From IMG/VR virus record IMGVR_UViG_3300046462_000389: 64,000 nucleotides of DNA; one strand, 5' to 3'. How positions within the stretch are numbered: position 1 is the first letter of the stretch; each line of letters begins with the position of its first letter. Shown here piece after piece: positions 13,762-57,861 of this stretch. The notes beneath the pieces were generated by a model. It worked only from the letters and a program-made list of their open reading frames with translations. It searched no databases and was not told the origin of the DNA. The position numbers and the translations under genes were made by a program. This DNA comes from an uncultured virus (IMG/VR IMGVR_UViG_3300046462_000389) (Duplodnaviria > Heunggongvirae > Uroviricota > Caudoviricetes).

Positions 13762-14209
13762 CGGTGATGTCGGGGGGAAGGTCGCTGACGGCCCGTCGAG
13801 GGACATCTGGACCGTTGACCGGGAGCGGGGTGACGGCAACCTCGGAGCCGTCCTCGTAGATCGCTGCCGGACCGGCCAGGTACTGGTCCCCGGTCCTGAC
13901 GGCTGCCACCGACTCGGCAGCCACGTCGTCGGCGGAGAGGAAGGTGATCGTGTGCTTCAGCCAGGTATCCACCTGGGGGATGGCCAGGATGCGGGTGAGG
14001 GCTGCTGAGACGGCGGTGATGCCACCCAGGATCCACCAGAGCTGCGGGTAGTCGTTCGGGTCGATGCCCATCGCGTTGACGATGATCGGCACAGTCACCG
14101 CGAAGGCACCCAGGTTGGCCAGGATGGTGCGGGCCACCCGCCGCCAGGGATGGGCAGGACCAACCTGGGTCGGAGCTGGCACCGGGGTCACTGGGATCGG
14201 ATCGGTCAT
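13751..14209 (-). CDS. Actinophage two-TM holin
   Basis: PTQV..HPWRR.ART..TM..TM..LTRILAIPQV..WL pattern; GAGG RBS. Confidence 0.7.
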   Translation of the reverse strand: MTDPIPVTPVPAPTQVGPAHPWRRVARTILANLGAFAVTVPIIVNAMGIDPNDYPQLWWILGGITAVSAALTRILAIPQVDTWLKHTITFLSADDVAAESVAAVRTGDQYLAGPAAIYEDGSEVAVTPLPVNGPDVPRRAVSDLPPDITDVT

Positions 14210-14211
14210 GG

Positions 14212-14499
14212 CTACCTCACTGTTACGTCGAAGTCCGGCGTTGGCTGTTGCCACGGTCCTGGACTTGGCTCATCCTCATTGTCCGGCTCCGGTCCGTCTG
14301 ATTCGTCGGATTCGGGGCTCAACGCCTTCGCCAGAGTCAGCAGGCAGGCAGACGAGCAGATGTCCAGATGAAGGGCATCGCTGTCGTCATCGACCCGGAC
14401 CGGCATCCAGGAAGCTGGTACCAAGAACTCCGCGAAGTAGTCGAAGGCTGCCTGCCCGAACTCCTCATCGCAGACATCACACCGGTAGATCACGCTCAC
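14212..14499 (-). CDS. Small Zn-finger protein
   Basis: CDVC..ICSSAC plus an acidic tail. Confidence 0.65.
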   Translation of the reverse strand: MSVIYRCDVCDEEFGQAAFDYFAEFLVPASWMPVRVDDDSDALHLDICSSACLLTLAKALSPESDESDGPEPDNEDEPSPGPWQQPTPDFDVTVR

Positions 14500-17261
14500 G
14501 CTGCTTCCTCCAAAATCTTCTTCTTCCGGGTCTTCTTCACGTAGCCCTCACCCAGTGGTGGGGCTACCTCCTTGTCGAACACTCCTGCCGTGTACAGCGC
14601 CTTGACAGTACCGATCAGCTGCTCTGCCGAGGTCTGATCGGGGTGGAAGGTTCTGACCCCGGAGATCTCGGTGCCGATCGCCTTGTCCGCGAAGTCTGTC
14701 CAGCTGCTGTAGGGCTGACCGGCCACCAGGTCTCGGGCGGTAGCTGGACCGATCCCCTCGATCGCCTGGAAGCCCTTCAGGATGCGCTTGCCGTCTGCTG
14801 ACATCTTGTAGCTCAGCCCGGACTCGTTCAGATTCGGTCTGTCGATTTTGATCCGGCGTCGACGAACCGCCTTCAGGTAGCGCTCCTCCTTGTCTGAGCC
14901 GACCGCTACGGCCAGCATGGCGGCGTGGTAGGCCACCGGCTGGTGGATGGTCAGGTAGGCCGACCGGTAGGCGGTGATGCCGTAGACAGTCGCGTGCGGG
15001 ACGTTGAAGGAGTACTCCGCGAACGCGGCGAAGGCGTTCTCCATCCAGGCCCAGTCCTCATCGGTCATCCCCCGTTCCTGGCACCTGGCCTTGATCAGGG
15101 GCATGTAGTAGTCCAGCTCCTTCTTGGCCTCAGCCACCTTGGCGTTGGAGGCCTTGACCGCCTTCAGCACCCTGGTCACGTCGTCAGCCCCGAACCCCAG
15201 TGACCGGACGATGGAGATGATCTGGTCCTGGTAGAGCAGGATGCCCCGGGTCTTGGCGACGTTGGCCTCGATGATCTGGTGCCGCTTCGGGATCTCCTCT
15301 CGACCGAACTTCCGGGCGATGTAGGAGTCGGTGGCACCGGACTTCATGGCTGCCGGTCGGAACAGCGCGACCGCGTCCACGATCTCGGAGATGTTGCGGG
15401 GTCTCATCCCCTTGCAGCCGAGCATCATGGCGTAGCCCTCCAGCTGGAAGGCTCCGGTCACATCACCGTGGCCAATAGCCTCGTACACGTCCTTGGCGGT
15501 GAACGGGATGGTCTCCAGATAGTCCGGAGTGACGCCCATGTTCTCGCAGCACAGCTTCAGGATGGCCATTGTGTCGAGGCCCAACAAGTCCAGTTTTATG
15601 ATGCCGAGGCTCTCCACCACGTCACCGTCGAACTGGGTGACCAGAGAACCACCGACCATCTGCAGGGGAAGCATGTCGTTCAGCTCCTCCTCGGTGTTCA
15701 GCAGAGCGATGGCACAGGGGTGGGTGCCAGCGTTGCTGAACGTCTTCTTGTCGGCCAGGGTGTACAGCTCGTTCTTGTCCGACTGGGGGATCGAGCTCCA
15801 GTCGTCCGGCTCTGGTTCCTGACCCTTGGCCTGCATCACCTTCCGGCGCTTGGAGAAGTACTTCACCTTCAGCGAGCCCTTGCCGTCAGCGTTCTTGTCC
15901 ATCCCCAGCAGACCCCAGGTGCCGATCCGCTGGACATGGAACATGGTGCCCACCCAGGCCATCACCCGAGCACGCTCGAAGGTGTCCACGTCCAGGTCGA
16001 TATCGGGTGGCTTCATCCGGTCCTTGGTCAGGAACCGGTCGAACCGGGCACCCCAGACGATCGGGTCGATCGAGGTGATGCCCAGCAGCCAGCAGACCAG
16101 CGAGCCAGCCGCTGAGCCTCTGCTCTGGTAGACGATGTGGTTGGCCCTCATGTAGTCACAGACCCGGGTGACCAGCAGCATGTAGTCACCCATCCGAGCA
16201 GCGGAGATGACCTCCAGCTCCTCCTCCATCCTGGCCAGGTAGGACTTGGTCAGTAGCTGCCGATCATGGAGTGCCTTAAAGCATCTGCGCCGGATATCGG
16301 CATCAGGGTCAGCTGATAGGGCCGGGACTTTGTAAGAGTAGTGATCTGCTTCAGGGATCCGTAGATCATGTCGGGAAAGGAGAAGATCAAGACCGGCAGT
16401 CCCCCGGGCGTAGATATCTGCACCATGGTGCCGCCGCATCCAGTCATCGTCGACAAGATGGTAGCCATCTCCTGGAAACTCAACGTCATCGGTGCCGTCA
16501 CCGTAAGAGACCAGACGCTTGAAGGAGTTGTGGAGACTCTGCTCAGCCGGAGCAACGTAGTGACTGTCCTGAGTGATGATGACAGGAAGGCCCAGATCGT
16601 CTGCAATTCGTACCAGACTCGTGGCGATCTCATCCTCGGCCAACCCTTCTTCTCGTTCGATGCAGTGGTTCTGGATCTCGACGTAGGTATCGAACAGGGA
16701 GGCGAAGTAGGACACGATCTGCTTGGCCTCGTCGTAGCCGGTGTTGACCAGGGTCTGGATGACCAGACCGAAGAAGCAGCCGGTGGTCAGTGCGATGCCT
16801 TCGGACCAGCCCATCTCGTGGTAGCGAGCCAGGTCTGCGAAGTCGATGTTCGGCTTGTTGTAGAAGTTCCGGTGGCTGTCGGTGCTGATCCGCACCAGGT
16901 TGCGGTAGCCCTGGGTGGTGTAGGCCACCATGCAGCAGTGGTAGCGCTTGGCTGCCGGACCACGGTTCTTGGCTGCCTTGGCCTCGTCCCGGCTCTGCAT
17001 CAGGTAGAACTCAGAGCCCGGGAACGGCTTGATTCCGGCCTTCATGCACTCCCGGTACAGCTCGATCGAGCCTGCCATGTTGCCGTGGTCGGTGAGACCC
17101 AGACCCCTGTAGCCAAGTTCCTTGGCTCGCTGAACTATTGCTTTCGGAGTGGGCAGGGCATCGGTGGTGGAGTAGCGGCTGTGAGTGTGTACCGACCAGT
17201 AGCTTGACTGATCCCTTACGATTCGGATTCTTTTCTGGTCATTACTGGACACAGGTGTCAT
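14496..17261 (-). CDS. dnaE: DNA polymerase III alpha subunit-like (family C)
   Basis: PHP motifs HTHSRYS, TDHG, DSHY; RGSAAGSLV; catalytic PDIDLD and KLDLLGL; HhH IEGIG. Confidence 0.97.
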   Translation of the reverse strand: MTPVSSNDQKRIRIVRDQSSYWSVHTHSRYSTTDALPTPKAIVQRAKELGYRGLGLTDHGNMAGSIELYRECMKAGIKPFPGSEFYLMQSRDEAKAAKNRGPAAKRYHCCMVAYTTQGYRNLVRISTDSHRNFYNKPNIDFADLARYHEMGWSEGIALTTGCFFGLVIQTLVNTGYDEAKQIVSYFASLFDTYVEIQNHCIEREEGLAEDEIATSLVRIADDLGLPVIITQDSHYVAPAEQSLHNSFKRLVSYGDGTDDVEFPGDGYHLVDDDWMRRHHGADIYARGTAGLDLLLSRHDLRIPEADHYSYKVPALSADPDADIRRRCFKALHDRQLLTKSYLARMEEELEVISAARMGDYMLLVTRVCDYMRANHIVYQSRGSAAGSLVCWLLGITSIDPIVWGARFDRFLTKDRMKPPDIDLDVDTFERARVMAWVGTMFHVQRIGTWGLLGMDKNADGKGSLKVKYFSKRRKVMQAKGQEPEPDDWSSIPQSDKNELYTLADKKTFSNAGTHPCAIALLNTEEELNDMLPLQMVGGSLVTQFDGDVVESLGIIKLDLLGLDTMAILKLCCENMGVTPDYLETIPFTAKDVYEAIGHGDVTGAFQLEGYAMMLGCKGMRPRNISEIVDAVALFRPAAMKSGATDSYIARKFGREEIPKRHQIIEANVAKTRGILLYQDQIISIVRSLGFGADDVTRVLKAVKASNAKVAEAKKELDYYMPLIKARCQERGMTDEDWAWMENAFAAFAEYSFNVPHATVYGITAYRSAYLTIHQPVAYHAAMLAVAVGSDKEERYLKAVRRRRIKIDRPNLNESGLSYKMSADGKRILKGFQAIEGIGPATARDLVAGQPYSSWTDFADKAIGTEISGVRTFHPDQTSAEQLIGTVKALYTAGVFDKEVAPPLGEGYVKKTRKKKILEEAA
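16250..16633 (-). CDS. Candidate overprinted gene in the +1 frame inside dnaE
   Basis: 127-codon ORF whose limits match a stretch of A/T-ending dnaE codons (see findings). Confidence 0.5.
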   Translation of the reverse strand: MRSPRVWYELQTIWAFLSSSLRTVTTLLRLSRVSTTPSSVWSLTVTAPMTLSFQEMATILSTMTGCGGTMVQISTPGGLPVLIFSFPDMIYGSLKQITTLTKSRPYQLTLMPISGADALRHSMIGSY

Positions 17262-17302
17262 ACTTCTTCTCAGCTCCTCGCGGACGCTTCCTTGGTGAGC
17301 AA

Positions 17303-17332
17303 GGCCCCCCGGTTCCTCCAGGCCGGGGGGCC
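17303..17332 (-). terminator. GC-rich hairpin between ssb and dnaE
   Basis: GGCCCCCCGG/CCGGGGGGCC 10-bp stem just after the ssb stop. Confidence 0.55.
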
Positions 17333-17341
17333 AAGCTGTTT

Positions 17342-18172
17342 CTACTCCAGAGCCGAGATCAGCGTCTCGGCCAGCTCTGATGGATCGTCGGTGTCGGGGA
17401 TCGGCACCCCGGCACGCTGGAACCAGACTCGCAGCTGGTCGGCACTCATGGCACGGATCTCAGACTCCCCCAACACCTGCTCGGTGTCTGTGTCAGGGGC
17501 TGGATCAAAAGGGGGATCCTCCTCCTGCTTCTTGTTCTCGAACTCAGCCGTCCGCTTGGCCTCGGCCACCTTCGCGTTGTTGGCCTTGGAAGCCTCCCGC
17601 TTGGCCGGGTCCCACCGGTAGTTCCAGGCATCGAGCAGAGCTGCCTGCTTGTCGTTCAGCTTCGAGGCGTACATCTCGATGTTGAAGGTGCTCGGGTCTT
17701 CCTTGTCCAAGGTGTAGTTGACCCGGTTGGCCTTCTCGTAGCGGATGACGTTGTACTCCCGCTTCCACATGGACTCATCCCGATGCCAGGACAGCTCCAG
17801 CGGCTCCTTCAGCGAGCCGGGGATCTTCCAGACGTTGACGTAGCCGTCAGCGTCCGGGTCGTCGGTCCGGATCGCGTTCACCAGGTACTTCTTGGAGATC
17901 CGAGACTCCTTGACCATGCTCGGGTCGTCCGGGTACTGGTCCTTCAGCTTGCAGCCAGGGCACTCAGCTCGCCCCTCGGGACTGGTCGCACTGCACGGAT
18001 AGCTGCACCGCTCCTTCTCGGAGTAGTGCTCCCAGTAGCAGATCCACTCAGTCCACGGTTCGAGGAACCGCAGGGTGAAGCTGCCGTTCTTCCCGAAGTA
18101 CCGGATGAAGTTGCCTCCACCCGAGCCGGTCGGGAAGTCCTGCTCCTCAGTTGTCTTGACTCCGAACTGCAT
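17342..18172 (-). CDS. Single-stranded DNA-binding protein (gp32-like)
   Basis: GGG.FI..LRFL..YWEH..PC..CPGC..YLVNAI; acidic linker near the C-terminus. Confidence 0.75.
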   Translation of the reverse strand: MQFGVKTTEEQDFPTGSGGGNFIRYFGKNGSFTLRFLEPWTEWICYWEHYSEKERCSYPCSATSPEGRAECPGCKLKDQYPDDPSMVKESRISKKYLVNAIRTDDPDADGYVNVWKIPGSLKEPLELSWHRDESMWKREYNVIRYEKANRVNYTLDKEDPSTFNIEMYASKLNDKQAALLDAWNYRWDPAKREASKANNAKVAEAKRTAEFENKKQEEDPPFDPAPDTDTEQVLGESEIRAMSADQLRVWFQRAGVPIPDTDDPSELAETLISALE

Positions 18173-56295: not shown

Positions 56296-57861
56296 ATGAC
56301 TTTGCAGATGGTCGACAGCTCGATCTCCAAGGCTGCTCCGCTGTTCACCACGCACGAGCGGAGAGAACGAGCCAATCGTTCTCAGCAGGCTCAGGACAAC
56401 ATGGGCCTCGGTATCACGGCTGCTGGTGGTGGTGGCTACGCCATTCATCGCGGTGCTAAGCATCTCGGGGCTGCCGGTCGCGCCTTCAACCTGTCGAACC
56501 AGAGCTACCGCTCAGGAGTGGCAGAAGAGGCCAAGAACAAGCCGTTCAGCACCAAGTTCGAGCGTCAGTCGCCCAAGAAGAAGGCCAAGCCCTACCGGTC
56601 GACCTCGACCACGCTGGAGCAGTCTTCTCGTACCTGGGGGGTACACAACCCGACCGCCAAGACCAACGCCTGGAACGCCTACCACCACTTCGCGGAGGGT
56701 GCGCGGTACCGCAAGATCGGACAGGGTCTGCGAGGACGTGGTGCGCTGCTCGCTGGTGGTGGTCTGGCTGCTGTCGGTGGTGGAACTGCCCTAGTTCGGC
56801 ACGGTTACCGCCAGTCGAATGCTCTGAAAGAGGAGAGGCGAGTACGCCAGTCAGAGCGTCGGGCCATGTCCAAAGCTGACTGGCAGACCCTGGAGAACAT
56901 CGACCGTAGTTCGAGCAAACAGCGCCGGAAGCAGAAGAGCGCCAAGGTGGCCGGATCAGCTGGTCTGGCGATTGCCGCTGCACCGCTGGTGGCCGATCTG
57001 CAGGGCACCCATGGTGCCGCTGACAGCTTCAGCCAGGCCCGTGGTCTGGGTACCAGGGTCAAGGCTGCCTCCAGCAGGTTCTACCCGGGAGGCGCGGGCA
57101 AGCGGGCAGGCACGGTGCTCAGGGCTGCTCGGGCCTTCCCCAAGGGCACCGCGCTGCTCGCTGGTGGAGCCCTGGCAGCTGGTGGGGGCAGCAAGTTCGC
57201 CTACCACTACGCCCGGGAGAAGCACTTCAACAACGAGGCAGCTGTCCGGCGCAAGTCCAACCATCAGGACTACCTGCGGAACAGGCGTCGGGTCAACAAG
57301 GCTCTCGGCCAGTCCATCCTGAAGCCACTGAAGGCCATGAAGCCAGCGGCTCGTGAGCTGCGGGCGGCTAAGAAGACCATGCCTGCGACGGCCCGGACAG
57401 TGGGTGCTCCCAAGGCCGGGACCAAGACAACCAACACCAGTGTCAACAAGCCGATGGGCTTCATGCGTCCGGGCAAGACCACCACCACCAACATGACCTG
57501 GGGTCAGGGTGGGACCAGCGCCATGGACCGGACTACGACATCGGGTAGGAAGGACAACTTCCTCTACCGACCTGCCAAGCACTTCGAGACGACCAGTACG
57601 GTGCGCTCCGGTCTGGGAGCTCCGAGCACCACCAGCACCAGCGGTACTACTCCCGGGCAGTTCACCAACAAGGGCAAGGTGGCCTTCGGTGCTGGTCTGG
57701 GGGTGGCTGGCACGGCAGGTGCACAGCAGGTCCACCAGAACACGGCGCAGCGTCGACAGCTGACCACCAGCGCCTTCGCCAAGAGCGCGCCAGACCAGGC
57801 AGACGCGCATGTTGTCGGTACGCTCAGGCGAGTAAAGAAGGTGCCCAGGAAGGCGGGTTAG
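56296..57861 (+). CDS. Basic Gly/Ala-rich probable head-internal polyprotein
   Basis: ISKA, MSKA, VNKA, FAKS motifs separating basic segments. Confidence 0.6.

Follow-up and report, generated by a model that had tools for sequence, protein, structure and literature searches.

How should one interpret a long open reading frame (ORF) that lies wholly inside another gene, on the same strand, in a double-stranded DNA (dsDNA) phage? Annotation drops ORFs that are embedded in longer genes, and long same-strand overlaps are deemed almost absent outside tiny viruses. The question is raised by a 64,000-nucleotide (nt) stretch of DNA, here called the window, from an uncultured member of the class Caudoviricetes (IMG/VR record IMGVR_UViG_3300046462_000389). 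Its gene for a DnaE-like DNA polymerase III alpha subunit (14496..17261, minus strand; 921 amino acids, aa) contains in the +1 frame an ORF of 127 codons and a stop (P0002; 16250..16633, minus strand). We observe an anomaly in the codon usage of the polymerase gene, its coincidence with this ORF, its recurrence together with an open +1 frame in related phages, and an avoidance of stop codons that is specific to that frame. Our favored reading, to which we give a probability of roughly 0.55, is that the ORF is a separately initiated, fast-evolving overprinted gene.

Codon Usage in the Polymerase Gene

Likelihood segmentation places a block with a low G+C content at third codon positions (GC3) at dnaE codons 202–336 (16254..16658, minus strand), with a GC3 of 0.53 in the block and 0.85 outside it. 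Codons ending in A or T account for 59 of the 128 codons from 210 to 337, as against 97 of 743 elsewhere in the gene (Fisher test, 4e-16). An earlier note, which had counted by hand, gave about 59 of 128 over the overlap and 2 of 20 after the alternative stop, and a program recount returns both figures; for positions 16681–16740 it gave 1 of 20, where the single codon stands but the denominator is 21. It had also seen the anomaly cease at the alternative TGA, and the segmentation agrees, ending the block one codon before the +1 stop.

The shift is mainly toward T and affects many amino acids. Third bases over codons 200–337 are 31% T and 14% A, compared with 7% and 6% outside; GAT supplies 12 of 19 Asp codons in the block and 5 of 46 outside, CTG 4 of 16 Leu codons as against 49 of 58, GAA 4 of 8 as against 4 of 44, and CAT 4 of 8 as against 1 of 14. 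Across the 50 putative genes of the window, no 60-codon stretch within a gene has a lower GC3 than that of the block (0.47, where the 1% quantile of 1128 windows is 0.52); two lower values fall at the 5' ends of stop-to-stop ORFs and not within genes. The dnaE frame is certainly coding within the block, because family-invariant residues sit there (e.g., Q231 D232 S233 H234 Y235 and F262 P263 G264 D265).

The ORF listing gives the limits 16250..16633 (minus strand) exactly, so that the 127-codon ATG-to-TGA frame over dnaE residues of about 210–337 described in the earlier note is confirmed. Its candidate start (16631..16633, minus strand) combines the AT of a GAT (Asp) codon with the G that opens the following GAG, and this ATG requires a T-ending dnaE codon because GAT supplies its first two bases. 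The purine-rich tract already seen ahead of the ATG reads AGAAGAAGGG (16644..16653, minus strand); it lies 10 nt upstream and is, from the sequence, a possible Shine–Dalgarno-like site. The stop (TGA, 16250..16252, minus strand) arises from CTG ACC in the dnaE frame.

Upstream of the ATG, the +1 frame had been reported open for at least 100 nt, and we find it open for 51 codons (dnaE codons 159–209; 16634..16786, minus strand), in sequence of normal high GC3. The whole open stretch of 178 codons (159–336) is the longest +1 gap in dnaE, where the next longest is 71; in the +2 frame, other parts of dnaE contain gaps of 170 and 127 codons.

Homologous Genes in Related Phages

Relatives were gathered from 78 IMG/VR loci and 67 metagenome loci, and after removal of 11 duplicates and of two near-identical copies of the window's gene (L001 and L002), 134 distinct coding sequences were aligned. 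A dip was defined as a fall in GC3 by 0.15 or more over the aligned region that corresponds to the block, and the high-GC set as the 71 genes with a flank GC3 above 0.75. The dip is present in 41 of these 71 homologous genes. Aligned codons 210–305 are free of +1 stops in 33 of the 41 dip genes and in 1 of the 30 non-dip genes, with means of 0.39 and 2.67 +1 stops, respectively. In the same 71 genes, dip and non-dip members do not differ in this way in the +2 frame or in any of the three antisense frames. The earlier note had held that +1 stops in homologues with normal synonymous rates would speak against dual coding; the homologues with +1 stops turn out to be those without the dip.

The closest metagenomic DnaE proteins are 58–64% identical to that of the window, and among these (P0004–P0014) the DNA was compared for two. 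L080 (59% identity) has the dip, with a GC3 of 0.54 in the region, and an open +1 frame of 191 codons; L081 (60%) has no dip (0.91) and an open +1 frame of 27 codons.

The end of the low-GC3 segment is often the lineage's own +1 stop, and these stops are spread over aligned codons 305–367. Written as segment end/+1 stop, the two agree exactly or within two codons in the window (336/337), L080 (365/364), L095 (342/342), L004, L087, and L008 (305/305 in each), L084 (367/367), L120 (316/316), and L114 (317/315). In most of one large clade the segment ends at 307 and the stop lies at 315–316. Poor fits also occur (L005, 387/361; L093, 399/336; L083, 322/336; L038, 295/323). On a 60-row tree built without the columns of the block, the dip and the open frame each change 10 times.

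A +1 ATG is found at aligned codons 203–210 in most of the 39 dip-bearing sequences listed, and several relatives have GAGG(G)-type tracts 5–11 nt upstream of it. The reader should keep in mind that GAT-G junctions yield such ATGs whenever GC3 is low, and that the purine tracts derive from DnaE Glu-Gly codons. The upstream limit of the open frame varies among relatives from aligned codon 37 to 237; in L093 (aligned codon 208) and L099 (202) a +1 stop lies just upstream of the internal ATG, a position that fits internal initiation.

Low-GC members of the family can be placed beside these genes. L011, L012, and L145 (flank GC3 0.55) also dip, to 0.33–0.35, and have a +1 frame open for 98 codons, and L020 (flank GC3 0.63) has one of 146 codons. 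Long open +1 frames are less expected in such members, off-frame stops being common at low GC.

Stop Avoidance in the +1 Frame

For aligned codons 210–276 of 17 dip lineages, local codon usage predicts 19.1 stops in the +1 frame; 2 are present (Poisson, 1e-6), and 16 of the 17 lineages are stop-free where 5.6 would be expected. The same null is roughly calibrated on 20 non-dip lineages, with 39 stops observed and 54.0 expected. For 8 deep lineages alone, the product of the open-frame chances is about 1e-4 by arithmetic on the per-sequence values. Openness of the +1 frame beyond what residues and codon usage predict thus holds across lineages and not for the window alone.

The avoidance depends on codon context. 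A purine third base that would create a +1 stop, in a Leu, Val, or Ile codon before a codon starting with A, is used at 1 of 50 sites within the dip; in three controls it is used at 299 of 672 sites in flanks of the same genes, 36 of 89 in the same region of non-dip genes, and 279 of 698 in the flanks of the latter (40–45%). Likewise, A-ending Leu, Val, and Ile codons stand before G at 2 of 194 sites, as against 20 of 137 before a pyrimidine. The +1 frame has very probably been kept open by selection in the dip-bearing lineages, which would imply that it is read by ribosomes.

Properties of the Putative +1 Product

Each third position of dnaE is the second position of a +1 codon, and the earlier note had seen that the anomaly gives the alternative frame many hydrophobic residues. 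This is borne out: the LIVMF fraction of the +1 frame is 0.23 in the dip and 0.07 otherwise (DnaE itself, 0.27), and the fraction of DEKNQHY, which need A at the +1 second position, is 0.15 as against 0.03 (DnaE itself, 0.32). Both fractions thereby come closer to those of a genuine protein. Avoiding stops needs few codon changes, so the breadth of the codon shift is what one would expect if the composition of a translated +1 product were under selection. No transmembrane stretch was found in the product, the highest 19-residue Kyte–Doolittle mean being 1.14.

Conservation of the +1 peptide is seen only within the large clade, which has 21–24 relatives and does not include the window. Similarity between its +1 peptides reaches z values of 2–4.5, and about 30 C-terminal residues are conserved. 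At aligned codon 301, DnaE has T, R, E, H, Q, or S while a +1 Arg is kept in 15 of 24 members through CGA or AGA, and all four TCN codons occur for the +1 Ser that precedes this Arg. A profile built from the +1 peptides of this clade (alignment A3) has 8 protein matches at E ≤0.001, including P0123, P0124, P0125, and P0127, which are ORF calls with the same +1 peptide pattern.

Several further observations concern this clade (L016, L033–L040, L055, L099, L114, L117–L120, L124, L125, L128, L130, L137–L139, and L072). About 100 nt, at aligned codons 277–311, are conserved at synonymous sites, with rare dnaE codons fixed and a third-position entropy of 0.55 bits as against 1.03 gene-wide. The motifs REEWKDW and SLSLTLT occur in the +1 peptides of this clade; the window's clade is without them. 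Another profile match, the predicted metagenome protein P0128 (98 aa), follows the DnaE frame for about 55 residues and then the +1 pattern; a contig indel is the simplest reading of this switch, with a natural frameshift as the other possibility.

The DnaE residues under the ORF also bear on the question. The ratio of DnaE identity in the region to that in the flanks is 0.96–1.04 in dip pairs and 0.86–0.91 in non-dip pairs, and region/flank p-distance ratios are 0.80 at position 1 and 0.91 at position 2 with the dip, compared with 1.13 and 1.19 without it. Relatively slower residue change of DnaE in the block of dip lineages is as predicted for a second layer of constraint.

Proposed Mechanism

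If the ORF is an overprinted gene, ribosomes would start at the internal ATG (16631–16633), perhaps aided by the purine tract 10 nt upstream, and translation would end at the TGA (16250–16252). The resulting protein, about 127 residues long, would be basic and probably poorly ordered, with a high content of Ser, Thr, and hydrophobic residues. Selection for a workable residue make-up, with more T and A at +1 second positions, would lower the GC3 of dnaE over exactly the overlap because its third positions are those second positions, and selection against +1 stops would dictate which Leu, Val, and Ile codons dnaE is allowed. We infer from sequence patterns that translation occurs, and where it starts.

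The product would be fast-evolving and clade-specific, and both traits are typical of de novo overprinted viral proteins. Our guess at a function, should it have one, is an accessory role or one in interaction with the host, with expression alongside the replication module. We would give somewhat less than even odds to a broader proposal, namely that a fast-evolving +1 gene lies within dnaE throughout much of a large family of high-GC, uncultivated phages from soil, having been gained or lost about 10 times and readable from the GC3 dip that the hydrophobic and polar residue needs of the hidden protein would force upon dnaE. If so, the product could be an accessory factor linked to the polymerase or one that interferes with the host, and diversifying selection might act on it; few same-strand embedded genes of large dsDNA phages would be longer than this ORF.

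Evidence That Weighs Against an Overprinted Gene

A number of results count against this proposal and should be considered together. The open +1 frame of the window is not significant on its own, being stop-free in 9% of synonymous shuffles that keep local codon usage (codons 210–305) and in 23–31% of the trials of another synonymous shuffle test. The dip itself lowers the number of expected +1 stops, to about 0.2–2.5 in dip genes from 2–6 in others; the open frame is thus partly a side effect of the dip, yet the observed stops are far below even that expectation. The stop-avoidance P values are optimistic because the lineages counted are related. A tree-aware test of the association between dip and open frame leaves 7 independent pairs and a median sign-test p of 0.375, with two-state coding and little power, and open frames of 100 codons or more are present in 6 non-dip genes and missing from 3 dip genes.

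Between distant clades, +1 similarity is not above a synonymous-shuffle null (mean z 0.83, compared with 0.29 in control regions), and between the window and its nearest dip relative, L080, the z is 2.1 where controls give 1.0–1.9. No homologue of P0002 was found at E ≤10 among 5.8 billion proteins (length band 69–223 aa), and there was no free-standing +1 homologue among the five of the eight profile matches that were read. AlphaFold2 models are weak both for the window's +1 protein (mean pLDDT 56.4, pTM 0.24; a helix at residues 4–20 has pLDDT 82–88) and for a member of the large clade (mean pLDDT 58.6, pTM 0.32), and their confidence is too low for use in fold searches.

Synonymous sites of dnaE are not slowed across most of the block. 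Third-position entropy over aligned codons 200–270 is 1.2–1.47 bits as against 1.03 gene-wide, and the third-position p-distance ratio in the dip region is 1.11. A synonymous-site comparison, as suggested in the earlier note, thus finds no reduced variability over most of the block, the only such stretch being codons 277–311 of the large clade. The note's claim of dual coding under selection is supported insofar as dips and open +1 frames occur together and dnaE avoids the codons that make +1 stops; it fails to find support in synonymous rates over most of the block and in the +1 peptide, which is unconserved between clades.

A strain variant, represented by contigs of run X15, adds a further point, for which 40 of 83 variant places are listed. 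Among the places listed, 13 single-base differences lie inside the ORF, at dnaE positions 1, 2, and 3 in 6, 3, and 4 cases, and in either frame some 7 alter the residue and some 6 are silent. With +1 synonymous and nonsynonymous changes nearly equal, the window's lineage gives no sign that purifying selection acts on the +1 peptide. Here, too, the earlier proposal of a separate small protein is upheld only in part: the anomaly is tied to the +1 ORF and not to a fixed position in the protein, but the X15 changes show no preference for keeping the +1 residues.

The X15 differences are clustered in 16259–16647, with 16 listed places and a compensated 1-nt deletion/insertion at 16398/16401 (two places are shared with run X21), and 9 listed places fall in the rest of the 1607-nt X15 contig. 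Third positions differ in 4 of 128 codons of the ORF, as in the flanks. Listed differences elsewhere in dnaE are nearly all synonymous third-position changes, whereas many in the block change DnaE residues, and V217A, G224D, and I229L bring in residues also found in L080 or L081. Between these two strains, then, the protein-level evolution of the block is unusual.

Alternative Explanations

The main rival is a cluster of rare, A/T-ending codons at the junction of the PHP domain and the polymerase core, selected for slow translation during co-translational folding or for unstructured messenger RNA, with the +1 ORF as an untranslated by-product. It would account for the recurrence of the dip at the same aligned place across lineages with third positions free to vary, for a +1 peptide that is unconserved across clades and between strains, and for a 431-nt RNA that is less stable than its shuffles (z +1.39; 95 of 100 shuffles reach the same stability or a higher one), and the dip alone reduces expected +1 stops. 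It leaves unexplained, however, why stop avoidance is specific to the +1 frame and to codon context (1 of 50 as against 40–45%) while the +2 frame fills with stops, why dips end at lineage-specific +1 stops from 305 to 367, and why sister genes are dip-free (L081 beside the window's gene, L006 inside the large clade). We consider it unlikely, if the one to be taken most seriously. A nucleic-acid element in dnaE, such as an origin, internal promoter, packaging site, or regulatory RNA, that needs lower GC and constrains synonymous sites is improbable. It could explain the stretch of about 100 nt conserved at synonymous sites in the large clade (aligned codons 277–311), and GATC is frequent in the block by eye and over-represented window-wide (556 observed, 226 expected from mononucleotide composition). 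That conserved stretch is foreign to the window's clade, and such an element would not favor one reading frame for the avoidance of stops.

A programmed +1 frameshift, proposed in the earlier note, would give an N-terminal PHP fragment with an alternative C-terminus. The 51 open codons upstream of the ATG in the window would allow it, and a purine-rich Shine–Dalgarno-like tract is nearby; such tracts stimulate the +1 shift in prfB. However, the upstream limit of the open frame is variable (37–237) and lies directly before the ATG in L093 and L099, no synonymous-site conservation is seen at aligned codons 196–225 (relative codon identity 0.77–0.81), and the candidate site has neither an in-frame stop nor an evident hungry-codon motif. 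Mere truncation, moreover, would not require some 130 more open codons. The L093 and L099 stops and the lack of a visible conserved shift site leave the frameshift only a slim chance. Least probable of all is a mosaic segment recombined from a lower-GC relative, with the ORF open by chance. The family has low-GC members, and the cluster of X15 differences matches the limits of the block, but the excess of those differences is at positions 1 and 2 and not 3, unlike what a more diverged donor would bring. DnaE identity in the block also ranks as it does in the flanks (0.62 between the window and L080 and 0.58 between the window and L081; flanks 0.55–0.75), and the dip-free sister is as close there as the dip-bearing one, which argues against the recent recombination from a lower-GC phage that the earlier note had weighed. 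Recombination cannot, besides, explain stop avoidance in many lineages.

Other candidates were tried and rejected. A structured RNA element has no Rfam match at E ≤1 in 14000–18000, and the RNA has no excess structure, as the z above indicates; no promoter-like and no terminator-like sites were found in 15900–17400; and among iterons and repeats, 16150–16750 holds only two-copy matches of 12–17 nt. An antisense ORF of 279 aa (16368..17207, plus strand), codon-aligned with dnaE codons 19–298, is interrupted within the block by codons CTA and TCA, and antisense frames do not differ between dip and non-dip genes. The codon-aligned antisense frame is often open in high-GC genes, and this ORF does not match the block.

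The Polymerase Gene and its Setting

The window is high-GC DNA (61%) and phage-like. Its DnaE-like protein, identified from the ORF listing and Pfam, matches PF02811 (PHP; residues 24–199, 3.6e-34), PF07733 (DNA_pol3_alpha; 330–561, 3.3e-40), PF17657 (finger; 580–715, 1.3e-27), and PF14579 (HHH_6; 804–862, 1.7e-06). All four domains are above curated cut-offs, and their order (PHP, polymerase core, finger, HhH) is that of DnaE. The closest cultured phages are Gordonia phages, with 35% identity. Five cultured phages among 1424 matching records were examined (Gordonia phages Hanem, DalanDe, GMA6, and FlyingTortilla and Brevibacterium phage Cantare); these five have no GC3 dip and 4–6 +1 stops each.

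The IMG/VR contig L001 is near-identical to the window, with 11 mismatches in 4569 nt; none falls in the low-GC3 block and 10 are at third positions, a number too small for any test. Among the other virus records compared, the nearest (G001, 24.5 kb) does not match dnaE. DNA of the window recurs in 24 soil and rhizosphere runs, and none of the listed ones is RNA.

Two side observations concern composition. A second internal GC3 dip lies in a 521-aa ORF (56296..57861, plus strand), where 20-codon windows fall to 0.40–0.50 around codons 141–180; it has no embedded ORF, with +1 stops at codons 166 and 177 and +2 stops at 194 and 204. In the whole window, CTAG (30 observed, 226 expected), TTAA (2 and 92), and CTAA with its complement (30 and 299) are under-represented.

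Significance and Comparison with Known Systems

Translation of the ORF, if it occurs, would add an unrecognized gene to a widespread group of soil phages and would mean that room for a second gene exists even in a polymerase essential for replication. It would also provide a single-genome signature for high-GC genomes, namely a local GC3 dip with frame-specific stop avoidance, and a natural series of gains and losses in which to study the birth of proteins by overprinting. If the ORF is not translated, the frame-specific avoidance of stops still needs explaining. Co-directional overlaps of more than 60 bp are nearly unknown in prokaryotes, according to one preprint (bioRxiv 10.1101/724807). 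Our literature search, which covered titles and abstract openings, found no report of an overlapping gene in phage DnaE.

Long overlapping genes are reported for Pseudomonas aeruginosa (PMC8850804); they are antisense and backed by ribosome profiling. The likeness is that of a long ORF embedded in an annotated gene and argued from sequence features and selection tests; the difference is that our candidate is on the same strand and is argued from sequence.

Programmed frameshifting yields tau and gamma from dnaX of the bacterial DNA polymerase III, and prfB uses a +1 frameshift. With these, our locus shares a second product, here a putative one, from the other frame of a replication gene, and a purine tract near the candidate site. 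Unlike in dnaX, where the shifted frame ends almost at once, about 127 codons are open here, and unlike in either system, some relatives carry +1 stops immediately ahead of the internal ATG, and a conserved shift site is lacking.

Viral accessory proteins that arose de novo by overprinting are the subject of two reviews (PMC8227390, PMC6195259). The candidate resembles them in that a new frame would lie over an older gene and in its unusual make-up, fast evolution, narrow spread, and low predicted order. Most documented overprints are found in small RNA or single-stranded DNA viruses; here the carriers would be large dsDNA soil phages, and the footprint is a GC3 dip in a high-GC gene.

The best-known models are same-strand, fully embedded genes in the +1 frame: gene E inside gene D of phiX174, and Rz1 inside Rz of lambda. 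As in these, a complete ORF with a candidate start of its own lies inside a longer same-strand gene at a +1 shift, and its putative product is clade-restricted and of odd composition. The products of E and Rz1 are proven and have roles in lysis, whereas ours is a candidate and nothing about it suggests lysis. The setting differs as well, for phiX174 has a tiny genome under size pressure, and here the enclosing gene is that of a replicative polymerase, in a phage represented by a 64-kb window.

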